In this document: positions 1 to 62,067 of the stretch, in pieces
Layout of the letters: every line of letters starts with the position of its first letter
Position numbering within the stretch: position 1 is the first letter of the stretch
Source of the DNA: Paecilomyces variotii
Lineage: Eukaryota
Assembly: GCA_004022145.1 (NCBI GenBank)
Contig: RCNU01000001.1
Strand: one strand, 5' to 3'
Length of the DNA: 64,000 nt
Notes under the pieces: model-generated
What the model saw: the letters and a program-made list of their open reading frames with translations, nothing else
What the model was told of the DNA's origin: nothing
The model's database searches: none
Made by a program: the position numbers and the translations under genes

Positions 1-600
1 TCTCTTAGCTAAGACTTTTTTATTTTAATTAATAATTAAGCTATAGGCTTTATTTTTATTATAAGCTTATTAAGCCCTAAAATTATTAAGATTTTACTAG
101 TTAACTTTACTCTTATACTAAGCGTAAATATTACTTAAATCTCGCCTATACTTAACTAAGCAGCTTATTTAAGTAGCTTAGCTAAGCACTTATAAACCTA
201 GCTTAAAAAGCTTACAGCCTTAGGCGGATTTAAACTTAGGGCTTTAACTAGGAGGTATAGTTATTCTGTTAAAGACTTAGCTAGCTCTAGGTTATATAAA
301 CTAAATCTTTTAACTACTCAGCTAAAAAAACTATAATAACTACGCCTTTTAGTTAAAGCCCTAAGTTTAAATCTGCCTGAGGCTATAAGCTTTTTAAGCT
401 AAATTCGCGAGTACTTAGCTAAGCTGCTTAAATAGGCTGCTTAGTTAAGTATAAGTAGGATTTAAGCAATATTTACACTTAGTATAGGGGTAAAGTTAAC
501 TAGTAAAATTCTAGTAATTTTAGGGCCTAATAAGCTTATAGCAAGAATAAAGCCTATAGCTTAATTATTAGTTAGGGTAAAAAAATCCTAGCTAAGGGGA
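1..600. repeat. Long degenerate inverted repeat (arms ~1-263 and ~337-600)
   Basis: gctttaactaggaggtatagtta (241-263) matches the reverse complement of taactacgccttttagttaaagc (337-359); tctcttagctaag at the start pairs with cctagctaagggga near 600. Mismatches are mostly C/T or G/A. Confidence 0.85.
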
Positions 601-677
601 GTTAAATAGATCTAGGTATATACTATAGTAGTATACTAGCTAAATAGTTTAAGGGCGAGCTTAATTTAGGGGAGAGA

Positions 678-852
678 TATTATAAGATATAGAGCCTTAG
701 CAGTGCCCTATAAACCCCCGGGAATCCCTAACTATTAGGCTATATAGTTTAGTGCTAGCTTAACTACGCTTAAGTATAGTTATTATAGTCTTTTTAGCTA
801 AGTAATTAAAGAATCTAGTTTATATAACCTAGAGCTAGCTAAGTCCTTAATA
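678..852 (+). mobile_element. Putative RIP-mutated LTR (~175 bp); partial inverted copy at ~267-345
   Basis: Purine tract aggggagaga (668-677) precedes tatta (RIP form of TGTTA); the unit ends in taata (RIP form of TAACA). The inverted copy keeps an intact TGTTA terminus at 267-271. Confidence 0.45.
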
Positions 853-2695
853 ATATTAAAGAAATAATATAAGAAATAAGTAATAGTAAGTTATAACTAA
901 TAGCTTAAATAAATATAGATAAAGACTTAAATAATCTCTTAATAATAATCTAAGTAGTATTTAAATATATTACTTAAAGAATTATCCCTTTAAAATTATT
1001 ATATCTAGGTTTTTTAGTAAATATTTAGTTTCTATATATCTTACTATATAATTAATATATAAAGCTATATTACTATATTAATATTATAATATATAATATA
1101 TTATTATTTAAAACTTATTTACTTAACTATATTATACTATTTAATACTAGTATTATTTTATTAATATAACTATAACTTCTTCTATAATAAAGAGTATTAT
1201 TATCTTTAAAATCTAGTAATATAATAATAAACTAAGTAAGAAGCTAATTTCTATATTAGAGTATTTTAATATAAATATATTTAATATATAGAAGCTAGTA
1301 AATATATTTTAAGACTTAATTATTTATAGCTATTTACTAGAATATATTAAGCTATATAATATATAGGTTTATATTATTATTAAAACTATATTATTAGCTA
1401 AATATATTACTAAATAACTATATAACTTTATAGCCTAAGAGTATATATATTATATTAAAATCTTAGCTAGTTTAATAGTTTAATTAATAAGAAATAATAT
1501 AATCTTTTTTTTAGTCTATAATATATATTATACTCTCTATAGATTATTATATTAATATATAAGAACTTAATTATTAAGCTTAGAATAATATATAGCTTAA
1601 AACTTTATCTTCTTATTTAATTCTATATTTATCCCTTAGTTTATATATATAAATATCTTAATATTAATATATATACCTTTAATAATAGCTCTAAGTAAAC
1701 TATATATTATTTATTAAAGAGATTTATAGTAATATAAGCTAGAATAAAAGGTAAAAAACTATAATATTTATATTAATATACTATTTAAAATATAGAAATA
1801 AGAGAAAGGCTAAGAGTAGCTAATATTATAAACTAAATATATATAGCTATTATTATAAAGAACTATTAATATTATAAATAATAATACTAAGAATAATAAG
1901 AATATAAAAGATATTAGAAAATAAAATAATAAGGATAATAAAAGTAAGTAATATTAAGAGTATTTAAATAATAATAAAGAGAGTATTAATAGCTTTAAAT
2001 AATATATAGATACTAATAGAAGTAATAATATAAAATATAAACTACTCTAATAGTATACTTATTTAACCTTACTTTAAATATTAATATTAATAGCTACTCT
2101 TATAGAATAATTAGTAGAATTTTTAAATATTATTAATAATATTAAGGCAGCAGAAATATAGTATTAGAGATATATTCTTAATATCTAAATATAAATATAT
2201 AGTTTACTATCTATAATAAATAAAATAAAGTAAATAATATTAATATCTATTTTCTTATCTATATTAAATATTATACTTCTACTTAAAGTTAAGATAGCGC
2301 TAAACTAAGTAATAATAAATATATAATATATATTAATAGAGATATATAGTAAATAAAATAAGAATATCTGCTTTAAAAAAAAAGAGCATCTTAATATAAA
2401 TCTATATCTAGCTTAGCATATAGTATAAAGAGTTAGTTAATATAAGACAGTAAATACTTAATTATCTTTATATATTTAGTAAGAGCAGTTCTTAGAAATA
2501 AGAGAATAACTTCTTTCTCTCTAAAGTTATCTCTAGCTTTAAAACCCTAGGTTTACTATTAAGTAATAATAAGCTTTAATTAAATAAATAAAGTATATAT
2601 AATCTAAGTAAAAATTATTAGAGAATTTTTAAGAAATTATAATACTAAATATATATAAAGCTACTTATAAACTTATACTTAGAAAAAAAGAATAA

Positions 2696-2954
2696 TATAA
2701 TAAGCTATACTTAGTTAAAAAGCTTTAATAATCTTTAGCTAAATATTATTATAATAAATTTATTTTAATATTTTACTAAAGTAAAATCTATTTAAACTTA
2801 ATATTACTTATCTTAAGCCTTTTAATAGGACTAATTACTATTTAAGGACTTTCCTAGATACTCTTCCTTTCCTCTTCTTCTTTCTTTCCTTAAGATTTAG
2901 TATATTTATACTTGACCCCTAGCTAGTTGAACAAACTGCCTCAGGACCGTTACA
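2696..2954 (+). mobile_element. Putative 3' LTR of an LTR retrotransposon (~259 bp)
   Basis: Ends ccgttaca at 2954. Starts tataataa, the RIP product of tgtaacgg (reverse complement of the end). Preceded by purine tract agaaaaaaagaa (2681-2692); contains a TATA-like and a CT-rich segment. Confidence 0.55.
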
Positions 2955-3070
2955 ATAACTTTTTAAAGTACGCACTCGTTTGTATTACAGTAAAGATACA
3001 GTATATCTACTGTAATCTAGCCCCGGCAAAATCTGGTACGGTTTGCTAAGGGGATAACTAAACACAGTAG

Positions 3071-3741
3071 CTATTTGCGAATGCGAGCCATCGAGGCAAT
3101 CTCTTCGCCAGGATTGCTATAATCCACAAACCCAAACTTCGCGTATAAAGCTGCGCCGTCCTTACTAGCATCGACATACGCCTGGACACCCTCAGCATCG
3201 GCAAGTTCACAGCCCCAGTTAACAAGCAAGGAGCCGGCCCCTCGCCGCTGGTAGTCGGGGTGTGTAGCGACCGTATCCAGGTCTCCAGACAATTAGTCAA
3301 TGAGTTATTATTATTCAGTCAACAAAGAATCGGGATAGAATAGCCCATACAAATATGCTTAGTATCTCCCATGACACGCTTTCTATTAACCTCCTCTTTG
3401 CTGAAAAATTCATCACAAATCTCAGCGGGCATTTCTTCATGCCATGGGGGATAGCGTCGCCCTCGTTCTTCAGGCATGGACAGATCCCATTTAGCATATG
3501 CGGCTATCCGCGGGCGGCCCTGGGCATCTTTCGTTTCGGTGTCTATCACTTTGATGTACCGCTGAAAAGGCTTATTGAGGAGATCGTGGGCATTGGCATC
3601 TTCGAGCCATTTGTGCACGCCTGGCGTGTTTGGGAACACGCGTTGTAGGTCCGGGTCGGTAAAGGCCGCGAACCATAAGTCGGTGATGGCTGGGATGTCC
3701 TCAAGGATAACGGGCTGTAATTCGAGGGTGGAAGTGACCAT
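3071..3741 (-). CDS. GNAT-family N-acetyltransferase (2 exons)
   Basis: ORFs 3319-3741 and 3071-3292 joined by an intron near 3285-3350; acetyl-CoA motif A LDTVATHPDYQRRGAGS and C-terminal LYAKFGF. Confidence 0.88.
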
Positions 3742-16740: not shown

Positions 16741-18377
16741 CTAGTGCGACTTCTTGACCAATTCCTGGATTATTTGCCTGTGTGCCAGTTTCTTAATCCA
16801 CGCACGAACCGCAGGACCGTAATCGTGCCTCCTCCCACTGGCATAGTCATCTTCCTCTTGGTGAGACTGTAGTTCCCCGTTGATAGACTGTCTTATGCTC
16901 TGTTGCAGGGAGACGAGTGTTTGTCGATGGAGGAGGAGGTTTTCTGCCGAGGCCAATTCATACTCCTCAGCTTCCGCAGCGGGTATTGTGGCATTGTCTA
17001 TGTCGGCTTCCGTGAGGCGGAGAGACGCGTCAGGTCCAAGGATAACGTTCGGTTGGCTATCATGGGATCCTGGCTCTGAACCGCGCTCGGCCAGCTTCGT
17101 GTCTATCCTCTGAAGGGCTTTCACGTTCTGTGCTAACTGAGCTATGTAGTCGACCAGAGGATCCCGAACGACACCGAGAATAGAGAACTCGATTTGGTCC
17201 TCCTCATACTCTAACATCCTGGAGAGGATCATCGGCTTTACTAGGTCCATCCAGTCCTCTTCGGAGCATAGCCCTTGGGAATGTTAGCCACCGGGAGATA
17301 TGCATGCAGGGTATTCAAAACATACCCAATGCCTGCGGCTGCCGTTCTAGTCCGTCGAGTTTCCACACCTTCCCCATAGCCGGTACAAAGGCAATGAAGT
17401 GGAACCCAGCCTCGAAGTCTGCAGAGGCATTACCCTTCTTTGACCCTCTCGATCTTTTGAAAGTCGATTCATTTTTAAGTTGTAGGTCAGAGTTGAGCAT
17501 ATCCATCTTCCTATCTAGGCATCAGTGTTCGTTACTCTTTATTTGCATTCAACATGGGTAGGAAACACACCGTGCGAAAGAATTATGTATCCTCTTAACG
17601 AACTCAAAGTTATTTATGGCATCACCTCGCAGTGCTGGGGTGAAATCCATCGTAAAATCTTTGAATCTCTGCAACTTCTCTCCCAGATCGAGAGAATCTA
17701 TGTTATTGACGATGTTTAGCAGAGCAACACTGGCACAGGCATTGTGTGTGGTCTGCTAGATGTCAGTGAGGGGGCCAAGGTACTTGGGGGTTAAAAAACG
17801 AACTTGATTCGCGAACCAGAGACCATCTGGACAGCTTGCTTCTTGCTTATCTGCTTCCTCTTCTCGCCAGCGGAATAGAAAAATCAATCCGTAAACAGGT
17901 TTGCTGTGAACCGGTTGTTAGATCGGGATATATGGTTGACCAAGGGGGGTTGGGGCTCCCGTGACGCACTGTAGAGACGCTATGATTTCTTCGTCGAGTG
18001 AGATGACTTCTTGCACTTTGATGCCTGACACTCCGAACTCGCGGAGCATGACACTGAATAGAGCCTGTATGTGTGTAAGCATGAGATCTGGTGGGTGTGT
18101 CTTCTGGGGTTGATGCAGGAAGTATAGACATATACATATCCATATCCATTGTCCTGCGCATGAATATATATATATCTCTCTCTCTCACCACCCCCATCAG
18201 ACTCGCAAGGGGTCACCCTACCGGCTCAGATTCTATTTCACAAAACCCATTCCATCGATCCTTGACCTCATCACTAATAGGAACAAGCGGATCTTTAGGA
18301 TAGATCCTCTCATCGAGACCAGACGTCGTCTTCGACGAAGCTCCCACGCGTCTTCTCTTAGCGCGCGGCGGAGCCAT
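16741..18377 (-). CDS. Ubiquitin C-terminal hydrolase, UCH37/UCHL5-like (multi-exon)
   Basis: Exons read by eye: WNGFCEIESEP, VYGLIFLFRW, FANQ, NACASVALLN (catalytic Cys), FHFIAFV..KLDGL, and C-terminal RRHDYGP. Confidence 0.88.
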
Positions 18378-18690
18378 GGTGATGAGTGTTCGAAGACGAA
18401 GAGTGGCGACGGATTGACAGGAAGACCGAAGAATGAAGGAAATCCTCGTCTTCCTTCTCTATGGTACAATTGAAAATGGCCGGGGTTATATTTGTATGTT
18501 GTACATAGAGTGTTGGTTGACCGTATTGAGAAGTAGCTTGCTATTGGACAGCTGGTCGGCTGATACTGGCGCAGCAACCGCAAGCGATGAATTGGATGTT
18601 TGCCAATGGCAATATGAAATTGATATTTGTGTATCAGTTAATCTGAATGGCCTCTCCTTAAAAAGATAAGTTAAAATAACATAATAATAA

Positions 18691-18693
<3 letters not shown>

Positions 18694-18735
<42 letters not shown>
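18694..18735. repeat. (AT)n microsatellite
   Basis: About 20 AT units. Confidence 0.9.
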
Positions 18736-18741
<6 letters not shown>

Positions 18742-19002
18742 TAAGGCAAAGAAAAGGGGGTATCAAATTTTTAAATAAAAAACAGCTAAAAACAGCTAAA
18801 AATAATTAAAACATTTAAATATTAAATTATAACCATCGAGAAGCTAAAGAATATACTTTCTCACTTAAAATTTATATCTAAACAGGAAAATAGATGACTA
18901 GATTAATAAGTGAAGCTAGAATCAGATAAAGACTGCATATTAGAATAGGAAATGGTAAGCGCCAAGCGGGCGGGCTGCCGTGCTTAGTTAGCGCTATACT
19001 TA

Positions 19003-20875
19003 ACGTAATTCCCGACCGACCTGATTACCCGCCCGACCTGATTACCCTATGAGCTTCCTTCGCGATTATTAAATCAGTTTTATTCAACTACTTACTATAC
19101 TACTAAAAAAGCTTATTTTATTAAAAAATCATATTAAATAGGAGGAGAGAATCTTATTAGCAATTAAAGCTTTAAAAAAAGATTAAATTCTCTCTATATA
19201 AAAGGCAGCGTTAATTTTTAATATTTTATATATAACCCTTTAAATAAGACTTTAAGGATATTAATTTTGCTATAATATACCTAATAATATATTTAAATTA
19301 AATAAAGTATAATAGAAATTACTTATATAATAAATATTATTTATAGATTTATAGAGATTAAGTCTTTAGCCTATATAAATCTAAGAGATAGATAATTTTT
19401 TTATAGATTAAGATAGCGGGGTTTAGTTAAGGAAGAACTAGGCATCTATATTTATTAAATATTGCCCTAAATTAAAAAATATTTATTTTAGATAATATAC
19501 CTATTAATAAGCTAAATATAAAAATCTAAAAATTATAAAACTCTATTTTAATAGTATTTAAATAACTAAAATAAAATATAAGATTACAGATAAAGATATC
19601 TATAACTTTAATAAAACTAGATATATAATAGGCTTTATTACTACTGCTAAGATAGTAATATAAGCTAAATATTATAAAAGATATTAAGTTATCTAACTAG
19701 AGAATTATAAATAGATTATATTAATTAAATATATTAACTCTATAGGCTAAGTAATACTGCTATATATTATCTTTAAAGATAAAACCTATATTTAAGGCTA
19801 GTATAAGGATCCTAATATATTAAAAAACTAAAGAATTAAAGTTAATAATAATAGTTAGACTATAGACTAGATTAAATTATACTAGCTTAAAAAAGTTTTT
19901 ATACCTTAAGTAGCTTGCTAGAAGACTAGATAATATTTACTTTTTATTCTAGACAGGTATAGCAGTTATTTAATCTTAAAATTTAATAAGATATATAGTA
20001 AATATAATATTATTTTAGTCTATATATTAATATACTTATTAGCTTTCTATTAACCTTTAAATATTAGCTGCTTTAAACCTTTAAAAGAAGCATATAATTA
20101 TTTAGTTTAAGATAAGCATTAGTAAGGGTTTAATTATATCAATAAGCTTAACTTTCTAAGCATTTATCTTAAAGCTTATATCTAAATATTTATTTTAAAT
20201 ATAATTAAAAGCAGATTTAAAGCAACTAGTTTAATCTCTTTTAACTTAGACAAAGTGCTTAAATAGTTTATTATTTAATTAAATACTCTTATATTATTAG
20301 AAAGCCGGTTAACTGCTTCTATAATTTCTTTATCTAAAATATTATAGAATTATAAAGATTTAGAGAAATATAGAACTATACTTTAAGGCTTACTTAAAAA
20401 ATAAATCTAAAATCCTCTATCTTCTAATTAGCTAGTTCTAAATTATTTTATTTAATAATATAAATACTTAATAAGTGAGAAAATCTTTATAATATATAAG
20501 AATTAAAATCTATACTTAGCTAATAAAGAACTCTAGCAAAAAAAATAATAATCTAATTATTAAATAAGTACTATATAGGATTTAAATATTAAAGAAGATT
20601 AAACTCTTATATAAAAGAATAATAAAGCCAGCAAAGCTCTTACTAGCACTATAGAGCAAATAGGCAATTTAATTATATAGCCGCGCCAGCGGGCGCTGCT
20701 AATATATTTAAATTATAATATTAGGGGCCATACTAGAGTTAGATATCCTAATTAATATAGCAATAGGATATTGTTAAATTATACTACTATTTTGGTAGTA
20801 AAATCGGACAGTATTTCATCTACATGTTTGGGGTGATCAGGTCGGGCGGGTGATCAGGTCGGTCGGGAAATATGT
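19003..20875 (+). mobile_element. Fot1/Pogo-type (Tc1-mariner superfamily) DNA transposon, RIP-inactivated, ~1.87 kb
   Basis: ~45-bp TIRs (acgtaattcccgaccgacctgattaccc... and ...gggtgatcaggtcggtcgggaaatatgt) flanked by TA on both sides. Transposase relics: EERILLAIKAL, DIYNFNKT (from DIYNFDET), ILDRYSSY (from ILDGHxSH), PLNISCFKPLK (from PLDVGCFxPLK). Confidence 0.92.
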
Positions 20876-36880: not shown

Positions 36881-38582
36881 ATGGCGCCGCAGTTGGAGCC
36901 TTTTTTCAAGGAGTAAGCAAGCTCTCTGTGCTTCTGGGAGCCAGTCAGAACTTCAGAAACTGACCCTGGTGTGCTTTCGTTTAGGGTGGACCAGCAGTCT
37001 GAGTCTTTTATTGACCGTATGTACCTTTTCCATGGCCTGTTTGTGCTCTTTTGGGCTTTTGAAGAGTGAAACTGAGCTTCTGCTGCGATCAAGGTCTTCG
37101 CAAGGCTGTTGCGATTCCATCCGTCTCTGCTCAGGATGAGAACCGAAAGGATGTCTTCAAGGTGAGTTCCATCTGGTTGCCGATTTTAAGCTGCAGTCGT
37201 CTGATGTGGTTGCTACTTTAGATGGCCGATTTCCTCGCTTCTGAGCTGGAAGCTCTCGGAGCTGAAGTGCACAAAAGACCACTAGGAAAGCAGCCCGGTA
37301 AGGAGCATCTCGATCTGCCGCCTGTTGTCATTGCCCGATATGGAAACGACAAGAACAAGCGGACGATCTTGGTGTACGGCCACTATGACGTCCAACCGGC
37401 TTTGAAGGAAGATGGATGGGCTACTGAGCCTTTCACCCTTAGCATTGACGATAAGGGAAGAATGTACGGTCGTGGTGCTACGGATGACAAGGGACCTGTC
37501 CTGGGCTGGTTGAACGTTATCGAAGCTCACAAGAAGGCTGGCGTCGAGTTCCCTGTGAACTTGCTATGCTGCTTTGAGGGAATGGAGGAATACGGCTCCG
37601 AAGGGTTGGACGAGTTCATCCAGGCTGAGAGCAAGGGATTCTTCAAGGACGCAGATGCCGTCTGTATCTCCGACAACTACTGGCTGGGAACTGAAAAGCC
37701 CTGCCTAACCTATGGTCTGCGAGGCTGCAACTACTACTCTGTCAGCGTCTCTGGTCCTGCTCAGGATTTGCACAGCGGTGTATTCGGTGGATCTGCACAC
37801 GAACCCATGACAGACCTGGTCAACATTCTGTCAAAGTTGGTCGATTCTCAGGGAAACATCTTGATTCCAGGTCTCATGGATCTTGTTGCCCCTCTGACAG
37901 AGGAGGAGAAGACGCTCTACGGTGGAATCAGCTACAAAATGGAAGACCTTCACGAGTCGCTGGGCAGTGAAACCAGCATTCATCCCACCAAGGAGAGGAC
38001 TCTGATGGCTCGATGGAGATATCCTTCTCTGTCTATTCACGGTATCGAAGGTGCATACTCCGCACCTGGTGCCAAAACAGTTATTCCGGCCAAGGTTATC
38101 GGCAAGTTTTCCATCAGAACCGTGCCCAACATGGAGAGCGCGGATGTGAACAAATTGGTGTTCGATTATATCAAGGCAGAATTTGCCAAGCTGAACACGA
38201 AGAACAAGCTGGATGTCTGGCTCCAGCACGACGGCAAGTGGTGGGTTGCTAGCCCGAAGCACTGGAACTTTACAGCTGCCAGTAAGGCTGTGAAGCAAGT
38301 TTTCGGAGTCGAGCCCGATATGACTCGTGAGGGTGGAAGGTTTGTAGCCTACTGAATCCTTTGTGCAAAGGACTAAAGAAAGCTAACTGTGGTGATAGTA
38401 TTCCTGTCACATTGACTTTCGAGCAGGCAACGGGCAAGAACGTGTTGCTTTTGCCGATGGGCAGCTCCACGGATGCTGCTCACTCTATCAACGAGAAGCT
38501 CGACAAGCGAAACTATATCGAGGGAACGAAGCTGCTGGGAGCTTATCTTCACTATGTCGCGGAGGAGCCCATTGTTAACTAA
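36881..38582 (+). CDS. DUG1: Cys-Gly metallodipeptidase, M20 family (Dug1/CNDP2-like)
   Basis: [43 protein letters not shown]. An in-frame upstream ATG lies at 36710. Confidence 0.93.
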
Positions 38583-44472: not shown

Positions 44473-46176
44473 ATGACCGACGCACTTGCCTCACAACTCG
44501 GCAACACAAAGCTAGGGTTTGTGGACTCCGCTCACCGCGAAGTGTGGAATCAGCCATGGACTCACATCGTTCTACAGAGATTCCAACATGGACTCCGCTT
44601 GGAGAGAGAAATTAAATGTTCCCCCTAAAGACAACAGAACTCAGACCGAGGTACATCACACTATGTCCTAGGATATGAGCGGCGAAGATGCTGATTTGAA
44701 TTACAGGATGTCACGGCCACTAAAGGACTCGAATTTGAAGACTTTTATATCAAGCGCGAGTTGATGATGGGCATATTCGAGGCAGGATTTGAGAAGCCCT
44801 CTCCCATCCAAGAAGAGACGATACCTGTTGCCCTTACAGGCAGAGATATCCTCGCGCGAGCAAAGAACGGTACAGGAAAGACCGCTGCCTTTGTCATCCC
44901 TACACTAGAACGAATCAACCCCAAGAGCACCAAGACCCAGGCACTCATCCTGGTCCCGACAAGAGAGCTGGCGCTTCAGACCTCCCAAGTTTGCAAGACT
45001 CTCGGCAAGCACCTAGGCGTCAATGTCATGGTTACCACAGGTGGTACTGGCCTGATGGACGACATCATCCGTCTGAATGATCCCGTGCACATCATTGTTG
45101 GTACTCCAGGACGAGTCCTCGATCTTGCGAGCAAAGGAGTCGCCGACCTGTCTGAGTGCCACACGTTTGTCATGGATGAAGCCGATAAGCTCCTGTCGCC
45201 TGAATTTACCCCTGTTATTGAGCAGCTGCTGTCGTTCCACCCGAAGGACCGCCAGATTATGCTTTTCAGCGCCACATTCCCTCTAATTGTGAAGTCTTTT
45301 AAGGTAGGGCGCACCGCCTGAGCTTGGCTTACTAGTGATTAACCAGTGATATAGGACAAGCACATGCGCAACCCTTACGAAATCAACCTGATGGACGAAC
45401 TTACGCTCAGAGGAATCACGCAGTATTATGCTTTTGTCGAGGAAAAGCAGAAGGTCCACTGTCTCAACACTCTCTTCTCCAAGCTGCAGATCAACCAGTC
45501 CATTATCTTCTGTAACTCCACGAACCGCGTGGAGCTGTTGGCCAAGAAGATCACAGAGCTGGGATACTCTTGCTTCTATTCACATGCGCGCATGCTCCAG
45601 CACAACCGTAACCGTGTTTTCCACGATTTCCGGAATGGAGTCTGTCGAAACCTTGTCTGCTCTGACCTGCTCACCAGAGGTATCGATATCCAAGCGGTTA
45701 ACGTGGTCATCAACTTCGACTTCCCAAAGAACGCTGAGACCTACCTGCACCGAATTGGCCGATCCGGACGTTTTGGACATCTGGGTCTGGCGATCAACCT
45801 CATCAACTGGGATGACCGTTTCAATCTCTACAAGATTGAGCAGGAGCTCGGCACAGAGATCCAGCCTATTCCTCAGTCTATCGACAAGAAACTCTATGTC
45901 TACGAGTCCCCGGATACCATTCCACGACCTATTTCTAGTTTGCCCCAAAACCAGCCCCGGCAGCTCACACAGGGCCAGCCCGGGAGCAACGGAGAACCTC
46001 ATCAACGTCGCAACAACCACCACACGAACGGCGGCCACTACAACTCGAACCGGGGGCGTGGTTCCTATCGTGGAGGTCGGGGTCAAGGCCAGCGCCGCGG
46101 CGGACAATATGACGGAAACAAGTCTGGCGTGCCGCCCCAGGCTGGTGGAAAGTCCCAGCCCTTGCCGGCGTCCTAG
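44473..46176 (+). CDS. DHH1: DEAD-box RNA helicase Dhh1/DDX6
   Basis: [30 protein letters not shown] and [10 protein letters not shown] motifs; RGG-rich tail. Confidence 0.97.
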
Positions 46177-47618: not shown

Positions 47619-49232
47619 ATGATGGCCTCCCGCCGGGCGTTTGCGTGGCCAGCGGTGCTGGTGCTGGCCCTTGTTGTCGCAGGCACGTCAATGTTGAGCA
47701 CGGCACGAGTATATATGATCGAGCAGGCATTATGTCGTACATATTACTCCACTGTTTCTCCTGACAAGATATTACCGAGCGGCAGTGTCCCTGAGCAAGA
47801 GTGTAAGTTAGATCAAATTCAAGCAGATGTCGCACTTTTATCGGGATGCTTTCATGTCAGCAGTTTGGTCCCAGGTGAGATTGCTCTTCTGTTTTGCCAG
47901 TTTGGTCTTGTTGTTTCTCACAGAAATCTAGGGTTGATTGCTGCACCTCTGTATACACGTCTTGCCTCCATCCTTGGTAGTAGGACAGTCCTCCTTGTGA
48001 GTGTCTGTAGTTTTACGCTCGGAATCTGCTGTTTTGACTTAATCTGTATGTCAATCTCAATCAACTACAAGAGATCAATTGACTAATCCTAACTGAGGCT
48101 ACTTCTACGGGGTCTTCAACATTTGGATGATTCTGTTTACCAACCTGTTCGACCTGATCGGAGGAGGCACGACGCTGCAAAAAATCCTGCTCTACACTTA
48201 TATTGCGCAAAGCACCGATCAAGACTTACTGTATACATCTTTGGCTCTGTTCGTCATCTGATATATGACTAATATAAGGGATATAGGAGCAACCGGTTGT
48301 ATTTTGTCAGCGTGCTACTTCTGGGGACGTCGTTCTTCGCATCTTTCTTCGGTTCACAAACAATGAAAGCTAGCGCATGGTTGCCCCTGATGATTGGCAC
48401 ATTTCTCTGCAGCCTTACCATTCCGTGTGTCCTCTGCCTCCGTAGACAGGCGAGGGAGAAACCAAAATACGATGAACTCCCTATGGACGATGTGAGTGGA
48501 ACACCTGATGAACCGGACAATGATGAACACGAACACGACGAGAAGTCTCCGGGGCTATGGAGTACCATATTTCGGGCTATGACGGTGGACCTTCCACTGT
48601 CATTGTCCCCAGTCGCCGAAGCACTAAAAGACCCATTGGCAAGAGTGATGATGCTTATTTTTCTCATAATCGATATCAGTATGGCGGTGCTGGTCACGTT
48701 CACTCAGTTTGCATCAGCACTCTCTCATTGGAGTCTCGCGGACGTCAATGCTGTTACATCTTTCCACTTGGTAGTGAGCACCACAGCCCTCTTTGCCCTG
48801 CCAGTCCTGTCCAACTGGCTGGTTAGAATACTGCATTCTACCAAACAGCGGGTAGACCTGTGGACCGCGTCATGGAGTACAGTTGCAAAGATCATCGGGA
48901 TGGTTGGTATTGGACTTGCACCGACGCAATGGACCTGCTTCACGTCATTGATGATATATGCCCTTGGATATGGACTTCCAGACGCCCTTCGTTCGTTGGC
49001 AACCTGCGGGCTTGAGGACGAGAGATCGATCCAGAGCCTGTATATGGGGATAGGTCTGGCGCAGGAAGTGGCAGGCCTTGTAGGAAGTCCCATTTGGACC
49101 ACTATATTTTATGCCACTCTTGATGGCGATATTCCGCTGCCAAAGGGATCACATTTCTTGGCCGCTGCGTCCTTGTTAGGTATTGCTCTAGCTATAATAA
49201 TTAGGGTACTGGCGAAACGTCTCAAGACGTGA
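47619..49232 (+). CDS. MFS transporter, UstT-like (4 exons, ~482 aa)
   Basis: Exons 47619-47874, 47932-48045, 48098-48230 and 48287-49232 keep frame. Many hydrophobic helices, a luminal loop IEQALCRTYY...CKLDQIQ, LIGGG and a central acidic loop. Confidence 0.82.
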
Positions 49233-50361
49233 AAATATAGGATGCTTGTACTTGGGGCGAAGCTACTGCACATTAGAACATATATGATTCACACGGCTTT
49301 GCTGACTTCGCTCGGTTTACAATAAACGATCGACCGAGCAGGTGTTTACTCCTGCAATCAGAAGGGTTCAAAATTCGGGTTTCTGGAATCGGAATGTCCA
49401 TAGCAAGACGTCATCAGCCTCTACGTAGATTAAAGATACTCCTCGTCGATTTTTCGCTTCAAGCTTCACCGCTATTTTGCCACGTTTATCCACCCTGATT
49501 CGGTGTATCTTGAAGACTTAAAGAAAGAGGTCATTAAAAGGTTCGGCTCGTATGCGGAACTCAGATGTTCGAAACTGGAGAAGATATCAATCAAGTCAAA
49601 GCGTGGGCTATCGTTTGAGTGGTAGAAGGTGGTGCAAAGGATTGAGTGGCTAGCTGAGGGTATACGAAGCATTGCAGCTTGCAGGGCCACCACGTGGAGC
49701 AAAATGGCATCACACTGCACTTTAGTGCGAGTAACATACCATCACCTGGAAGAGTCTCGGTGCTGGTTTTGTGACATGTAGTACGCTACCTAAGGTAGGT
49801 CCAGACTTAGAGCGAGTTGGAGTTACTTGGCCCCTCCTGAACAACTTCCCCAACAGACTGTCGGGTATAACCATGGCAGGCATTAAAGATCTGCTCGCAA
49901 GCGTTCCGTAAATTTGGCGCAGATCTGTTTGTGGCGGAGGATGGATGGCAAATCGTGTTCGAACGACCATATGGAGTTCAATCTGGACTTCAGCAACATC
50001 CCGGACAATATGATCATTGTATCGCTTTCTTTTCTCTTTTCTTCTTCCCAAAAACCCGCCAGCGTCCAAGTAATTAGTATGAGAAAGCAGGAATGAAAAA
50101 TGTGACCAAAAATACCTTTCCAACGCGGTTGGGAAATATCGTCTGAGCTATATCAAAACTGTAGATCAGCTGCTGCCCATTGGTAGAGCCTACTGTAATA
50201 CTTTCGTATAAGCTGCCGATCAAGCTAATTCTATATCTGAGTCGATTGTAGATGTCTAAAATAGCTGGTTCAAGACAGAAATGGAAAAGAGAACAACTTC
50301 TACGGTCGACATTCGAATCATTCGAGACTGAGCAACTCCTGCAGGATTCAATGGAACCCCC

Positions 50362-51117
50362 CTAGTAAGTCTCCTTCCCCATCATAGTTCCATGATCATG
50401 ATGATCGTGCCCATGAGCTTTGGCAATCACAGTGCGATCAGAATGGAGCGCTACCCCAGCCTCAGTTACGATCTTATCCAACGGATCCCTCTTCAAAAAC
50501 ATCATCTCGCAGTGATCCAAATGTGCCAGATTATTATACCGATGTTCAATGGTCGTCCCCTTTTCTGGAGCAAGAAACATCTTTTTCCAATAATAAGCAC
50601 AATGAACCAGATGCCAATGATGCGTGGTGAAGAAATGCCCTCCCGTCTCGGGAAGCATGGCGACTTCGTGAAGAGTCATCGTCTTGGTTTTATTCTTGTC
50701 TGCGTAATATGGCCAGCTTCCATCAGGATTTGGGCCTGATTTCTCGAACTTGGCGATGAGATCGTCGTTTCGACAAGCGGGAGGTAGCCACGCCGCAGCG
50801 ATAGAGTCGTATTTGCAGTTGTTCGAGAGGGCCTCGACTATGGTGTCGCCGCAATTGCAGGAGACTGTCCTTCGCGATTGGATCAAGGTATATGTTCTGA
50901 ATCCCAGGTCAACGAAGCCGAAGGTCGCGAGGGAAACGAGCAGGAGTATTTTGATCCGCGAAGCAAAGGACTTTCTGGGAGGATTGAATTGATTGTGCCC
51001 CATTTCAGTATTGCAGTCGGTCTTGTGAGATTCTAGGCTCAGCTCAATGCTGTCCCTTTGGTGAAGATGCTCATACTTCATGGTGTCTTGTTTTTGGAAG
51101 AGCCATTTTGTCAACAT
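50362..51117 (-). CDS. UstYa/DUF3328-like oxidase with two HxxHC motifs (divergent subtype)
   Basis: One N-terminal TM helix, CNCG...EA...C.YD....WLP..C, HLVHC and HLDHC, and a His-rich tail. Alternative start ATG at 51081. Confidence 0.75.
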   Translation of the reverse strand: MLTKWLFQKQDTMKYEHLHQRDSIELSLESHKTDCNTEMGHNQFNPPRKSFASRIKILLLVSLATFGFVDLGFRTYTLIQSRRTVSCNCGDTIVEALSNNCKYDSIAAAWLPPACRNDDLIAKFEKSGPNPDGSWPYYADKNKTKTMTLHEVAMLPETGGHFFTTHHWHLVHCAYYWKKMFLAPEKGTTIEHRYNNLAHLDHCEMMFLKRDPLDKIVTEAGVALHSDRTVIAKAHGHDHHDHGTMMGKETY

Positions 51118-52303
51118 AGCTGCTTATTATTTGATGGTTGGTGTATCACAGTTGAGATGGGAGTACTCGGTGCTACTACAACGACCCTACGGCAGAAATT
51201 TATCACAGCATAGATTTGCCCTTTGGCTAGCTGAGGCCTCACCTCCCCTTCGTTTCACCTGGTTGATGTAAAATAAACTCACCAAGATGCGCATGCTGAT
51301 CTTTTCACCGATATAATGATGATACCTTGCATGAACAGGTTCATGCTGCATCCCGCACGCCATGCAGCCATAATGCAAAAGCCCAAAAGTTCATTGTACT
51401 ACGTAGTGACCACAAACATGGCTGGCTGAGAGTGGAGAGTTGTGGCTCCTATACAGAAGAGCTATATCGTGCAGAATACGCTAGTTAAATACCTACTCTA
51501 ATGCTGTTCACGCTAATGCAACTAATAATACATGTCGGCAAGGGCTCTACTACTGTACGTACTACGTAGATGTAAACACTATAATAACCAACCCCGAAAT
51601 ATTGCCGCCCAGATCCCAATATATAAGCTCTCTACTACGATGCCTAATAGAGTGCAGGCCGGATTGAGGGGAAAGCGGTTATATACTATTGGCGCGAGGC
51701 TATTCGAGCAGAGGGGAGAATCCTCCTGTTTGGTCATGTCTGGATCTGGCATACTAAGAACTAAACTAAATTACGTATAGCTTCAAATCATTTAGCGACA
51801 GTAAATGCGTGCCCACTGCAAATCATTTCTATCCTACTTCACGCTAAAAATCCCTCGATGAGCTGGTGCCACCGAGAAAGTTACCAGCAATATTGTTGGT
51901 CAGCTTCTTCAGTCAACAGCTCCAAGTTTCAGTGGCCTTTCGTATGTGCGGGGTTATACAAATTGAAACTACGCATATTTCAGTACAAAATGAGACGTTC
52001 ATGGCTAGTACGTGATCCGTAATTGTAACTATAACAGAGTTTTCCTATTCTTGTATGTCATCGTAGACTAACTATGTGCATACTTCGTCATAATCTGAAA
52101 AGATCAACTCGATTATCTCTGCTTTCCCATGGAGAACCCCACATCTAGGAAGGGCATACAAGCTGAGAGCTCCATATGCTAAAGTCAAGCAGAGATAAGA
52201 CTAGGAAGCGGAGAAAGCAAGAGCACCAATTTCACGATCAGTCACATCGGCACAGGCATTCCTTGAAGAAATGCAGCTCGAGCCAATCTGTCTCTCCATC
52301 CGT

Positions 52304-52830
52304 TTAGGGGTAGAACGGAATGGCCTCGTCGTCAGCGCTGCGCTTTGGGTAGAACGGAATGGCTTCGTCGTCTGCGCTGCGCTTAGGATAGAACGGAATG
52401 GCCTCATCGTCAGCACTGCGCTTTGGGTAGAATGGAATGGCCTCGTCGTCCGCACTGCGCTTTGGGTAGAATGGAATAGCTTCATCGTCTGCGCTGCGCT
52501 TAGGATAGAACGGAATGGCTTCGTCGTCCGCACTGCGCTTTGGGTAGAACGGAATAGCTTCGTCGTCAGCGCTGCGCTTTGGGTAGAACGGAATGGCCTC
52601 GTCATCTGCACTGCGCTTAGGATAGAATGGAATAGCTTCATCGTCTGCGCTGCGCTTTGGGTAGAACGGGATGGCTTCGTCGTCTGCGCTAGCTACAAAT
52701 TCGATATTATTTTGTCAGTATCAGGCATAGCAAATACGTCCTTGGAAGCAGAGCTGGCCATACCGATAGGAGCCGCCGAGATCAATGGAAGACCAACGGC
52801 CAGCAGGGAAAGTACAAATTTGAGCTGCAT
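52304..52830 (-). CDS. Kex2-processed repeat precursor peptide (candidate RiPP precursor), 151 aa, 2 exons
   Basis: Exon 1 52830-52764; intron 52763-52693 (GTATGG..CTGAC..TAG); exon 2 52692-52304. Translation: MQLKFVLSLLAVGLPLISAAPIA-(SADDEAIPFYPKR)x9-SADDEAIPFYP*. Confidence 0.93.
52307..52690 (-). repeat. 10 tandem 39-bp coding repeats (last unit lacks KR)
   Basis: Unit agc gca gac gac gaa gcc atc ccg ttc tac cca aag cgc; all variation is at third codon positions. Confidence 0.95.
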
Positions 52831-53952
52831 TTTGCACTAAATACTTTCAAATGTTGAAAGATACGGCGTCAAGTAGTTCTGGGCTTAGGTACGGAATGGA
52901 CAAAAAGAACAATGTGATGGTGTTACTGTTCAAGGATCTGTAGCTGATTTTATAGTTCTACAGGTATAGATGCAACTCTTTCAGTTCTTCATATCGACCA
53001 AGTCAGCATACGGCTCCATTGGTGGTACACTAGGAAATGCCCACAGCGACGGCTAGCTGAGAAAACTCGGTGAACGACGAGGCGTAGCCAGTTCTGGTCA
53101 ATGTGCCTACATATCCTGCATATGTAGTACAAACTTGGATTCCATTCACAACTGTCCAATGATAGCAATTATGGAACACGCTCGGTGTCGCCATCTGTAA
53201 GGGAAACAGGCAAGACTTGGATTTCGTGCAAAACCTGCATATTCATTGAAGATCGAATGCTCTAGGATGTGGATCTGCTGCTGTTGAAGCACTCGATTTA
53301 CCAATGTGTTCATGTCCAGACAGTACTGTGCTGTATCAGCTACACTGATATGTATCATGCCCATGCTCGGATGCTTGATATTGAGTGAGGAAATGATCCA
53401 TAAAGGTAAATATGAGGCTGGAAGCAAACTTGAACTGGCCTTAAATTATGAGGGTTTGGGATTCAAGAACCACGATGTTCTCCATTTGAGGTTCTGTGGA
53501 AAGACCAGCAGCTTTTGTTTACGCCCCATCTGGCCTACATACATAGAGTTTAAGCCAATGATGCATCCGCGCACGATCTGCGGCGATCTGTGAACTATCT
53601 AAAGATCTATTCATCTACTTCAGTGGTCCTCACAGCAAGCCACAGCCGGCTGCACGTTGGGAAACCCTTCAGCTGATACCAGTCGCTCTGATATACATAG
53701 GGACAGGAAGCGGCCTCTCTTCTAAGTCTGTCACCCCGCCTTTTCTCATACCCCTTGCTTTCGGCGAGCAACCCCTCAATCGGTATCAATTCAATCTAGC
53801 TATGCTGTGAATACTGAATACTAATTATACGTTACCTGAGCCGGTGACGTTGGGAGCGTGGCATTTCCTGCTAACCGCGAAACCTTGAATAAAAAAAGCT
53901 CTCTGCCAGACTATTCTTTGCAGATTATTCAAGTGAATCGTCTGAGCTTAAG

Positions 53953-54961
53953 ATGATGGCCCTGGGCGAATCTCAATATCCTCAGGCCCCGGATGACAGA
54001 TCTGGTAATTGGCGTGAGAGTATGGATGAGAAGGAGCCAGAGCAACCTTTACTGACTGTCCCCGGCAATTCGGTACACGACACAGAGCATGGCCCTACAG
54101 GCTGTGTGCAATGGCAGAGGCGCAGCTGGGGACTCTGGCTCACTATCTTGAATATCTCGGTCTGGCTGGTAACGATTTTCTTCATTTTCTCGCCGTTTGC
54201 TAGCCGTGCTTGCCTCCGACACCTGAGTGACCAAGAGAAATGGAAAGCCGTCTCTTATTATGGTAAGACCACTGAATATTATATATCTATATATATTCTT
54301 CAATAATAGAAAATCATCTAACGACGATTCAGCCCCCGTTTTTGACCGTTTCGAGATCCCTCGCATAGTCCAAACGACCAACGGGTCACTATATGATACA
54401 TACCCACCCTCGATCCTGCGAGTTCCCAAGGGACCTGAGGCAGACGCAGAATGGTTTCGGATAGGAACTGGTGTTTTCCCACTCATAATCTCATCAACTG
54501 AGATCCGCAAACTGGGAAAAGACCCCTCTGTGGCTGTGAAAATTCCACCAGAACACGGATACGGCGATGATGCGTACCTGGCGCAAACTGAAGTGTTCCA
54601 CCTTCTCCATTGTCTCGATATGCTTCGCAAGGAGATCTCCTACGAACATTATTACTTCCCGAAGTTCGGAAACAATCCCGATGCTCAGCACCAGGCTCAT
54701 ATCGGACATTGCATAGACTTGCTTGCACAGTCGATTAAGTGTTCAAGTAGCGTCGATGTCATCTTGTTCAACTGGGTCGAGGGCTGGAATCAGCCATTTC
54801 CAGACTTTAAAAACAGGCATGTTTGTCGGGACTTCGAGGCACTTCTTGACTATGTCAATGACCATTCTGTTCCGGTGGAAGTGTTTCAAGCCATGAAGGA
54901 ACCGCCCGAAGGTTATGTTCGTTTACCAGAGCCAGCTCCCGTGAACAGGGAGGGTGCATAA
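53953..54961 (+). CDS. UstYa-family (DUF3328) oxidase, 2 exons, ~312 aa
   Basis: Exons 53953-54262 and 54333-54961 (GTAAG..CTAAC..CAG). TM helix, EADAEW, VFHLLHCLDMLRK, HIGHCIDLLAQSIKC and H.CRDFE. Confidence 0.92.
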
Positions 54962-55496
54962 TCGATGAGGATCAACTCAGCTGGCTTACTCACTTCTAAT
55001 AGATATGGACAAGAACTTCGGATAACTTAGCTTTCATCGTAAATATGTAAAGGGACGTCCTCAGGTCAGTTATTGCTGTCTGTCGGGAAGATACAGTGCC
55101 CTGCCACTACTCCCAACTCCCAGGACTATATTCCACTACAAGATATACTAGTAGTTATCTTCAGTTAAGTAGGTATGTGGGTTGCAAATGGCCTCACTCT
55201 ATCTCCGTCCGTCCCAAATATTAAGCAATCAGCACTGCAGGAGCCGGTTACAATATCATATAGATTGAACGGCTTTGAGGAAAAGAAGAAGAATGTTGAT
55301 TTCCCTAGCATAAGGATTTGTAGGATTCTACATGTTGACAACCTGTGAATTTCAATTGTCGGCGGGTTTGGATGCACAAGCAGGGGTTGCCGACTGCCGT
55401 AATAAATTGTTGCCGACAATCGGCGTTTCCACTGTCGAGCTTCTGTCATAGACAACATCGTCCCGCTCATCGAGTGCAGGGAGGGCGTCTACAGCA

Positions 55497-57175: not shown

Positions 57176-58606
57176 CTATGCCTTCTTCTGGCCCTTCCCC
57201 TTTGCCTCCTTCAGTTCATCTTCGGCAATCATTGTCTCAACCTCACGGTCAGCGAGCCACCCTTGTACGCTCTCCATGACCGCTTCGAGACCATCACCGC
57301 CATCGAGAACATTCCCTAGGTTGTGGATTGTGATACCACTACGATGATCGGTACATCGACTCTGATTGTAGTTATACGTGCGGATCTTGTCACCACGACC
57401 CATTTTCGCAACACCCCCCATTGCGCCTCGTCGAAGTTTCACTAGCTCCTCTTCGCGAGCTTCTCGTCTCGCGTCTGCCAGCTTGGCTCGCAAAATTTGC
57501 CATGCTCTTTTGCGATTTGCGTGCTGGGACCGTGACTCTTGCATGGAGACGACAATTCCAGTGGGGATATGTGTCAGGCGGATAGCCGACTCAGTCTTGT
57601 TGACGTGCTGTCCACCGGCGCCGCTCGCTCTCATTTTCTCTGAGCGAACATCCTGGGGATCGATATAGTAGTCGCTGTTCGGATCCTCGAAATTCAGCGG
57701 ACTGTCCTCACCTAACCCTGGCTCCGGGAAACTAGGAAGGACCATCACGCTGACAGCACTTGTATGTATACGTCCCTTGGCCTCCGTAGCTGGAACCCTC
57801 TGGACTCTATGCACGCCGGCCTCCGTCCTAAGAACATTATAACTGCCATCAGTCTCGACCTCCATGACAGCCTCCGTGAGACGATCATCCGCAGTTCCGT
57901 CTTCCGCATCTAGCTTGATTATACCCGTGCGAAATCCCTTTCGAGAACAGAACGCGATGTACATTCTTAGCAGTTCGTACGCGAAGAGGCCTGCCTCGTC
58001 GCCGCCTGCACCGGGTCGGATTTCGATCAAACAAGGAAGATCCGCAAAGGGGTGACGGGGAATAAGTGATTTCTTTAACTGATCCGAAATCGCGGGTAGG
58101 TTGGTATTGCTACTTTCGAGATCCTCAATGGCTAGGGATCGTAATTCCTCGTCTGTCTGGGGGTCTTTTAGAAGTGAATTGAGCTCTGATATGGACTGCG
58201 GTAGTCGATCAGTCAGTAAATGCGAGTCTGAGAGGAGATGAAATCGTGTGTCATTGGGCGTACCTCATTTGCTTTATCCCATTCTGCCAAAGCATTGACG
58301 ATCGGAGTAAGTTCGCCAACGCGCTTCGCAACTTTCGCATCGAAGGACTCGGCGAGACGGGTAGAAAGAGATGCATGCTCGGCTGCGATCGATCGCGCAC
58401 GATTAAGAAGAGCCGACGATAGGAGTCCGTTTGAAGCTATGTTATCTGTAAATAACTGCTTTTGCTGGAAGTGAGGTCGAATAAGCAGGAGATAACGTAC
58501 CTGTGGTTTGACTCCGTCGCTGCACGGGCACGGGCAAGCCCTGTCTCCATGAGGCTCTCAAAGATCGAGAGAGACATCTTGAGCATACCCAGGGGATATT
58601 GAACAT
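57176..58606 (-). CDS. MRF1: Mitochondrial peptide chain release factor 1
   Basis: IEIRPGAGGDEA, GVHRVQRVPATE, ASGAGGQHVN (GGQ), IRTYNY; presequence-like first exon MFNIPWVCSRCL. Confidence 0.92.
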
Positions 58607-61221: not shown

Positions 61222-62067
61222 TCATCTTGGAGGCGCATCAGTAAGTGGCACATAGCTAACCGCAAAGACCTTCTCCTTATGTACGGAGCCATCAGCCTTC
61301 TTATCTACGACCCAGATATACTGACCACCGCCCAAACCGAGGGCACTCAGCGCCGCTCCACCACCTTCCTCTGACTCTACAGGAATGAACAGGCGTCCCG
61401 GAGCACGCAACTGCTCCACGAGAACAGGATGGAGCTTATCAGCCGCGGCCCCAACATGGATAGCATCGTAAGGCGCGTCTTCCGGCCAACCTTTGCGTCC
61501 GTCTCCGGTGACGAACTTGACTTTTCCCGACTCGAGCATTTTACGGCCCTCGGGGGATTTGCTCATGTTCTTCTTCGCGAGGTCGACGAGTTCTTGGATG
61601 TGATCGATTCCAACGACGTAGCCGTCCTTGCCGGTAGATGGGCCATCGATCAGATTTGCGAATACGTGAGTGAGGTAGCCTGATCCGGAGCCAATGTCCA
61701 GGACACGAGAGCCGGGATGGAGGAAATCGATGAGATACTCGCAGGCATGGCCATGCATATGGGGAGCGGAGATGGTGGCGCTGTATCCGATCGGCTGAGG
61801 GGAGTCGGAGTATGGGGCGGAGGGCGCATAATGAGCGCGGTCGACCTTGGAAATTGGACGATTAGCTTGATTGGTACTGGGAAGTGAAGTTCTGTGATAG
61901 CTTTACAACCTGAACTGGGGCCCAAGGATGTAAAGTATAATGACAGCGGTGAAAGAAATACTTACGCCTAGCATGGCATTCTTTACTCGTTCATTCTTGA
62001 TGAGACCTGCCTCGAACAGGTTCTCGATCAGTTCGCTGTTTGTTTGTCCAGAACAATACCACGCCAT
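61222..62067 (-). CDS. Protein-L-isoaspartate O-methyltransferase (2 exons)
   Basis: MAWYCSG, TISAPHMH, VLDIGSGSGY, YDAIHVGAA, YVPLTD. In-frame upstream ATGs at 62175 and 62292. Confidence 0.92.

Follow-up and report, generated by a model that had tools for sequence, protein, structure and literature searches.

An island of four genes in the genome of Paecilomyces variotii is likely, at a probability of about 0.7, to be a transcribed and minimal biosynthetic cluster of the ustiloxin type (dikaritin-like) that makes a putative RiPP (a peptide synthesised on the ribosome and modified after translation). The island is located in a stretch of 64,000 nucleotides of contig RCNU01000001.1 (assembly GCA_004022145.1), here called the window, and consists of genes A to D in the order A> <B <C D>, all of which are intact in the gene models. 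Gene C encodes the candidate precursor, gene D a predicted oxidase of the UstYa (DUF3328) family, gene B a predicted single-pass membrane protein with paired HxxHC motifs and gene A a polytopic membrane protein that may be an exporter. An initial annotation, made from the letters of the window, had described four adjacent intact genes in about 7.3 kb and read them as a minimal RiPP cluster. The genes are present at the stated positions, and the reading is borne out in the main by the gene structures, by the selection acting on the repeats, by transcription with splicing and poly(A) ends, by the family of gene D, by the motifs and architecture of gene B, and by the recurrence of the gene B family beside repeat precursors, including a conserved precursor/B pair.

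The reading frame of the precursor gene opens at a minus-strand ATG at 52830 and ends with a stop at 52304-52306, and its intron has the borders GTATGG...CTGAC...TAG. The protein begins with MQLKFVLSLLAVGLPLISA, which is followed by ten identical SADDEAIPFYP units with nine Lys-Arg (KR) pairs between them, and residues 5-23 form a hydrophobic segment (Kyte-Doolittle 2.17) that is signal-like by hydropathy. The signal peptide and KR-repeat precursor of the initial annotation are thus retained, with an intron that is matched by RNA, and the protein has the two hallmarks of a dikaritin precursor, an N-terminal signal peptide and tandem cores delimited by Kex2 (KR) sites. Tandem Repeats Finder (TRF) reports 9.8 copies of a 39-nt unit with 85% DNA matches, which is far above chance. 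The copies differ on average at 4.6 positions per 33 nt (45 unit pairs), and the ten columns that vary all fall on third codon positions and are synonymous, which implies that the whole 13-residue unit, spacer included, is under strong purifying selection. Each core is preceded by an acidic SADDE(A) spacer. The spacers of yeast alpha-factor end in Glu-Ala, as does the spacer here, which would suit an ordinary Kex2 repeat protein that gives off signalling or pheromone-like peptides without modification and whose neighbours are unrelated. In a catalogue of 1758 Kex2-processed repeat proteins (KEPs), 22% are listed with a DUF3328 neighbour and 78% without, and pheromone-type KEPs are among those described without one (PMC7329392). 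This explanation is very unlikely for gene C, given that a PF11807 (UstYa/DUF3328) gene lies 1.1 kb away and is divergent from the precursor, that members of the gene B family accompany AIP[FY]Y precursors in two further genera and different KR-repeat precursors on metagenome contigs, and that the island stands as one unit amid housekeeping genes.

The genes are real and are transcribed in the same samples, which is no measure of co-regulation. The RNA evidence consists of contigs from two complementary DNA (cDNA) metatranscriptome runs (X4 and X5) of one food-fermentation study. Contigs of both runs contain a 71-nt splice joint in the precursor gene that is exactly the predicted intron, as well as a 70-nt GT..AG joint in gene D, and poly(A) ends are located at 52016-52025 and 52093 for gene C, at about 50209 for gene B and at 55025 for gene D. 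Gene B is spanned by RNA contigs without splicing and gene A is covered in short pieces only. One X5 contig of low depth (3.4; window 47670-48054) reads across the first two introns predicted for gene A without splicing, and the splicing of this gene is therefore supported by homology to the protein P0063 and not by RNA. In X4 and X5 the spacer bins are without cover and the precursor contigs are far deeper in word depth than those of genes B or D, values that provide no basis for ranking genes or for showing absence. In two runs of a second study (X2 and X3) genes and spacers are covered alike, with no splice joints and with many single nucleotide polymorphisms (SNPs), and as this pattern looks like DNA carry-over or another strain these runs are not counted as expression. 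The X2 and X3 contigs lack 34 nt at window 49883-49918 and carry many SNPs across the island, which looks like the trace of another strain, or of a near relative, in which the cluster is also present.

The initial annotation had named both gene B and gene D as UstYa/DUF3328 oxidases and had proposed a hidden Markov model (HMM) search against PF11807 as the check. This is upheld for gene D, which matches PF11807 with an E value of 2.5e-53 (181.6 bits against a cutoff of 25) and is assigned to this family by its sequence, and not for gene B, which matches no Pfam family even at E<=10 and falls into an unnamed HxxHC family. Gene D has a transmembrane (TM) anchor at residues 61-79 and, as judged by eye, HLLHC and HIGHC motifs 33 residues apart; a search of PDB sequences with gene D returned nothing meaningful. 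Its start is located 1.1 kb from that of the precursor, from which it is transcribed divergently, and thus within the distance of about 10 kb that defines a DUF3328 neighbour. With a signal peptide, KR repeats and such a neighbour the cluster is of the ustiloxin type (dikaritin) by the operational definition.

Gene B carries the motifs HLVHC (residues 169-173) and HLDHC (199-203), which are 30 residues apart, and ends in the His-rich tail HGHDHHDHG. Among 251 candidates scored there are 59 relatives of gene B, all labelled 'hypothetical' and none with a Pfam domain on record, which span Aspergillus, Onygenales, Leotiomycetes, Sordariomycetes, Dothideomycetes, Chaetothyriales and a lichen fungus. 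Both HxxHC motifs are present in 53 of the 59 relatives, 48 of which have a spacing of exactly 30 residues, and many end in His-rich tails. The four His and two Cys of the motifs are at least 90% conserved in the family, as are four further Cys. The relatives P0050, P0059 and L001:8622-9032 end in long MHP(D/E)(S/N) His repeats, and the tails of gene B and its relatives may serve to gather metal. An AlphaFold 2 (AF2) model of gene B built from 54 sequences has a mean predicted local distance difference test (pLDDT) score of 84; residues 1-50 are of low pLDDT and predicted to be disordered, the TM segment falls within a helix at 51-82, and each HxxHC motif sits on one of two successive helices (166-186 and 197-208). 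By this model gene B has the wider DUF3328 build, in which a disordered N-terminus and a single TM helix precede HxxHC(x)nHxxHC on two helices, and by its sequence relationships it founds an unnamed family of the Pezizomycotina. Foldseek of the model against PDB gave 0 matches at E<=0.001, the VIA wide fold search with the model matched the TM helix alone with Z below 5, and a PDB sequence search with the family found nothing meaningful.

The build is that of CctR, a DUF3328 protein that is described as membrane-anchored, lumen-facing and homodimeric, with a binuclear copper site and dependence on O2, and in which HxxHC(x)nHxxHC is located on two paired helices that follow a disordered N-terminus in the cytosol and one TM helix; AprY, the cyclase of asperipin, and ApnU, a halogenase, are reported to behave like CctR (PMC12435403). 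Like CctR, ApnU and AprY, both gene B and gene D combine a disordered N-terminus, one TM helix and a lumenal domain with HxxHC(x)nHxxHC. In contrast to them, gene B escapes the PF11807 model, and its likeness is one of build, with no solved structure against which folds could be compared.

Relatives of the precursor are found in other fungi (Table 1). When the precursor was searched in full with phmmer it drew 144 hits, mostly long acidic repeat proteins. An earlier word-based search had given one relative and had missed P0068, which is within its length range, with P0039 outside that range and P0102 just below it, so that its sparse result is uninformative. The Aspergillus steynii gene model P0039 is by its sequence a chimera, an error of annotation by which a precursor gene is concealed: its repeat units run straight into the homologue of gene B, which places the two genes side by side on one strand. 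In Polytolypa hystricis the precursor with IPFY cores (AJ80_09370) and the gene B homologue (AJ80_09371) have consecutive locus tags. Across five precursors 28 of the 31 matched units hold IP[FY]Y with the Tyr kept, and the position before this Tyr stays aromatic; the residue that follows it is variously P, E or M or is lacking, and Glu-Ala usually stands ahead of the core. Since IP[FY]Y is kept and the trailing Pro is variable, the conserved core is (A)IP[F/Y]Y. The core AIPFYP or IPFYP, which the initial annotation had not recognised from ustiloxin, phomopsin or asperipin-2a, is modified to this extent, and no paper that names it was found among the literature matches listed. In a quick tree of 64 rows of the gene B family, the three B proteins known to have AIP[FY]Y partners group in one short-branched Eurotiomycete clade of 37 rows with a Shimodaira-Hasegawa-like approximate likelihood ratio test (SH-aLRT) value of 85, nested in a clade at 97, and the gene B relatives of the metagenome loci L004 and L008, which have other cores, lie outside it on long branches.

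Gene B relatives recur in metagenome contigs beside repeat precursors and UstYa genes. They are found at 43 loci in 29 distinct groups, 12 of which have at least 3 kb of flank, and in seven of these 12 a relative of gene D lies 0.9-4.6 kb from the gene B relative. When 86 open reading frames (ORFs) of 11 loci were scanned, PF11807 matched above its cutoff in L008 (two genes), L020 and L030. At L007-L010 a secreted KR-repeat precursor with the core YGAKWA adjoins the gene B relative. On the short contig L004 a precursor is divergent from the gene B relative at L004:1946-2551 (+), about 1.4 kb apart. At L020 and L032 a looser repeat gene sits between a PF11807 gene and two gene B-like matches, amid ankyrin and HET genes, and L026 likewise has a looser repeat ORF. 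These neighbourhoods bear on the role of gene B, which may be accessory, as a heterodimer partner of gene D, a copper-delivery protein or a substrate-holding subunit. This would be in line with the presence of a canonical UstYa gene near the gene B relatives in seven of the 12 groups, with the His-rich tail of gene B and the long MHP[DE]S-type His repeats of its relatives, with the requirement for both UstYa and UstYb in the formation of the first ustiloxin intermediate (PMC6514808) and with the action of DUF3328 enzymes as dimers (PMC12435403). The four His and two Cys of the motifs, conserved at 90% or above, suggest on the other hand that gene B has a metal site of its own, and no UstYa is seen nearby in five of the 12 groups, so that an accessory role is possible and rather doubtful.

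A Pfam scan of the window covered 42 of its 75 stop-to-stop ORFs of at least 120 amino acids, the remainder being eight ORFs inside the island (most of which were Pfam-scanned separately) and 25 that overlap longer ORFs. The 42 ORFs include no tyrosinase, P450 or Zn2Cys6 regulator and no nearby tailoring enzyme, in agreement with the initial annotation, which had listed no tyrosinase, methyltransferase, P450, peptidase or regulator near the island. Among known clusters it comes nearest to those of asperipin-2a and the epichloëcyclins. The asperipin-2a cluster of Aspergillus flavus (core FYYTGY), a precedent for a small cluster, is described as four genes (aprA, aprY, aprT and aprR) without a tyrosinase (PMC6514808). 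It resembles the island in the number of genes, the secreted KR-repeat precursor, a DUF3328 oxidase, a transporter (putative in the island), the lack of a tyrosinase and the aromatic-rich core, a likeness that is set by gene content and description and not by the sequences of AprA, AprY or AprT. Its DUF3328 oxidase AprY is described as the only cyclase and depends on copper and O2 (PMC6514808, PMC12435403). Unlike asperipin-2a, the island has no reductase, has a second HxxHC protein outside PF11807 and has as its core (A)IP[F/Y]Y(P), where just one Tyr is invariant. The epichloëcyclin cluster (gigA, gigB, gigC and kexB) likewise has KR-processed repeats and a DUF3328 protein that is needed for cyclisation, and its cores INFKIPYT and IGFKLPYR have an aliphatic residue or Pro on their N-terminal side and Pro-Tyr close to the C-terminal end, and so share the polarity of I-P-F-Y (PMC10540207). 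Unlike the epichloëcyclin cluster, the island lacks both a SET-domain methyltransferase and a dedicated Kex protease, its core is shorter and without Lys, and it includes the additional gene B family. Ustiloxin and phomopsin share with it the signal peptide, the KR-delimited repeats and the DUF3328 proteins (UstYa/UstYb and PhomY) that are essential for cyclisation (PMC6514808, PMC7329392), and differ in that they need a tyrosinase and many tailoring genes and have a Y-x-I core with a Tyr-Ile ether bridge, relative to which the residue order is reversed here. Neither the core AIPFYP or IP[FY]Y nor the gene B family was found by name in the main texts of the literature matches listed, and MIBiG or the supplements of Ding 2016 and Nagano 2016 may contain the core. 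IPFY is absent from the supplements of PMC7329392, which list KEPs by accession only, and the literature matches listed for Paecilomyces variotii include none that links it with a RiPP.

For the processing, the enzymatic steps, the export and the product the following route is proposed. The 151-residue precursor would enter the secretory pathway via its signal peptide, and its ten units would be oxidised in the lumen of the endoplasmic reticulum (ER) and Golgi by the membrane-anchored, lumen-facing copper enzymes D and UstYa-like B. Kex2 would cut after each KR and exopeptidases would trim the KR together with the acidic SADDE(A) spacer, releasing a small modified peptide based on (A)IPFY(P) in up to ten copies per precursor, which protein A would probably export. 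The most likely reaction would be an O2/Cu-dependent beta C-H activation that links the invariant Tyr to the upstream Ile or Pro and gives a cyclophane-type macrocycle, with the second enzyme adding a further oxidation or a second link. We infer a Tyr-centred cross-link from the invariant Tyr and the aromatic residue that precedes it, from the invariant Ile-Pro and from characterised precedents: ustiloxin, phomopsin and asperipin-2a have ethers between Tyr and a beta carbon, and the ...IPY... cores of the epichloëcyclins are cyclised through Tyr (PMC7329392, PMC6514808, PMC10540207). The same cluster might make no macrocycle, its oxidases instead hydroxylating, desaturating, halogenating or isomerising a linear (A)IPFY(P). 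Halogenation, hydroxylation and isomerisation are reported for DUF3328 enzymes besides macrocyclisation (PMC12435403), the core is without the Y-x-I pattern of the ether-bridged dikaritins, and neither a reductase nor a tyrosinase is present. We regard this outcome as unlikely, as the DUF3328 partners of KR-repeat precursors are tied to Tyr cyclisation in the descriptions of ustiloxin, phomopsin, asperipin-2a and the epichloëcyclins, and as the Tyr and the aromatic position before it are kept in the five precursors to the extent given above. A more far-reaching version of the macrocycle proposal is put forward tentatively and as rather less than an even chance: gene B would represent a sister family of the DUF3328 copper enzymes that is class-defining for a subset of Kex2-repeat precursors, and together with gene D it would make a reverse-polarity cyclophane (N-terminal Ile/Pro to C-terminal Tyr) on a peptide conserved from Paecilomyces and Aspergillus to Onygenales. 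If so, the product would correspond, in fungi, to the cyclopeptide alkaloids that copper BURP cyclases make in plants, and Pfam-based mining would have missed or mis-scored such clusters.

Gene A is probably a divergent exporter of the major facilitator superfamily (MFS) type, as far as its sequence allows. Its exon model is identical at 470 of 481 positions (97%) to P0063, a Paecilomyces variotii 'hypothetical protein' that is the only homologue among the best 8000 candidates of a word-based search. A crude hydropathy scan identifies nine segments, and no PDB sequence match was obtained for gene A. The evidence for its link to the MFS is language-model similarity, with an Atlas feature score of 0.99 that serves as a lead: 235 of 256 features are common to clusters in which 82-90% of members have MFS_1. 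The MFS transporter label of the initial annotation found no HMM or fold confirmation.

Several of these results weigh against a RiPP cluster of the ustiloxin type. The MFS_1 profile matches exon 1 of gene A at an E value of 1.1 and 8.5 bits (cutoff 33.4), full-length P0063 matches 0 Pfam families, and the AF2 single-sequence model of gene A has a pLDDT of 42.5 and is unusable as evidence of fold. Gene B is outside PF11807, and in five of 54 of its relatives the PF11807 matches are sub-threshold only (best E 0.0098). An hhalign comparison of the gene B family with gene D gives a probability of 10.5% (E 0.003) with both motifs in register, and one with a crude UstYa profile made from metagenome ORF fragments gives 3.7% (E 0.012). 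In Atlas feature similarity the first Pfam-named neighbour of gene B is a UstYa cluster, at rank 18 with a score of 0.85, which is a lead only. With hhalign at no more than 10.5%, no Pfam match and this Atlas score, homology of gene B to UstYa/PF11807 is not demonstrable, and gene B is consequently filed as UstYa-like in architecture and not as a member of PF11807. Co-expression is drawn from contigs of one study, which can neither rank nor correlate expression, and 8-10 nt promoter words common to the upstream regions of A, B and C/D number 0 against a null mean of 0.7. Among the precursor relatives, 15 of the 144 hits were inspected, picked for high identity or short length, and among the 12 well-flanked metagenome groups a clear KR precursor is seen in only one and UstYa is missing from the five noted above. 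The absence of a tyrosinase among the 42 ORFs and of a Y-x-I core places the cluster, whose product is so far a predicted one, outside the ustiloxin/phomopsin subtype.

Housekeeping genes flank the island on both sides in the Pfam scan, and the island interrupts their order; their positions are given in Table 1 with those of the island genes and of the related precursors. The genes of the window carry short GT..AG introns and its GC content is about 0.49 outside two AT-rich blocks. These blocks (window 1-3300 and 18200-20800) have GC contents of 0.23 and 0.26 and dinucleotide indices like those of repeat-induced point mutation (RIP), with TpA/ApT of 1.51 and 1.24 against 0.58-0.73 in genic regions and (CpA+TpG)/(ApC+GpT) of 0.30 and 0.75 against 1.23-1.32, and are probably RIP-degraded repeats.

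Table 1. Island genes, flanking genes of the window and precursor relatives in other fungi and metagenome contigs (positions are those of the window unless a contig is named).
Feature	Position	Strand	Description
Gene A, polytopic membrane protein	47619..49232	+	481 aa, three introns
Gene A exons	47622-47874, 47932-48045, 48098-48230, 48287-49232	+	exon model
Gene B, single-pass membrane protein	50362..51117	-	251 aa, single ORF without intron
Gene C, precursor peptide	52304..52830	-	151 aa, one 71-nt intron
Gene C parts	exon 1 52764-52830 (67 nt); intron 52693-52763; exon 2 52304-52692 including stop	-	splice model
Tandem repeat array encoding ten core units	52308..52690	-	TRF, 39-nt period
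Gene D, canonical UstYa/DUF3328	53953..54961	+	312 aa, one 70-nt intron 54263-54332
Gene D exons	53953-54262 and 54333-54961	+	gene model
Dhh1-type DEAD-box helicase, left flank of island	44695-46176		Pfam scan
Mitochondrial-carrier-like ORF pieces, right flank	~55.8-56.9 kb		judged by eye
Mitochondrial RF1, right flank	57179-58264		Pfam scan
Nearest peptidase (M20)	37222-38352		separated from island by housekeeping genes
Nearest methyltransferase (PCMT)	61225-61902		separated from island by housekeeping genes
P0068, precursor relative			seven AIPFY-K(K)R units
P0102, precursor relative			AIPFYPKR units
P0003 (Polytolypa hystricis), precursor relative			EVIPFYEKR, EAIPFYPKR, EAIPFCPKR
P0039 (Aspergillus steynii), chimeric gene model			signal peptide and six AIPYYPKR units fused to C-terminal two thirds of a gene B homologue
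Metagenome locus L008 (parallel in L007, L009, L010)	L008:2054-9354		UstYa, secreted precursor with seven AEDGADEYGAKWAKR units, gene B relative, second UstYa, Zn2Cys6 factor
Metagenome locus L004, secreted precursor	L004:77-565	-	seven (G/D)AALNAVKP(D/E)SEKR units, core AALNAVKP
Metagenome loci L020 and L032, signal-peptide protein	L020:5452-5928, L032:5455-5931	+	four TLVTKQLGPVAEEDIGPIDARS(I/V)(Q/K)AR units; AR-type cut sites, not KR

Ustiloxin-type fungal RiPPs include potent tubulin binders, and to our knowledge only a handful of ustiloxin-type products have been characterised. As clusters that combine a KEP with DUF3328 are described as common in genomes (PMC7329392), a new core alone would be a modest finding. 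What makes the island somewhat notable beyond its core is the unnamed HxxHC family beside precursors, the conservation of AIP[FY]Y across orders and the direct RNA evidence. It consists of no more than a precursor gene, two genes of oxidase type and a putative pump, which makes it nearly as small as such a cluster can be, and its transcription in food-fermentation samples makes it a convenient test case for DUF3328-type copper chemistry on a short Pro/aromatic peptide. The chimera of precursor and oxidase-type gene in A. steynii indicates that such precursors are being mis-annotated. If gene B is catalytic, the rules by which fungal genomes are mined for RiPPs should include an HxxHC family that is invisible to PF11807.

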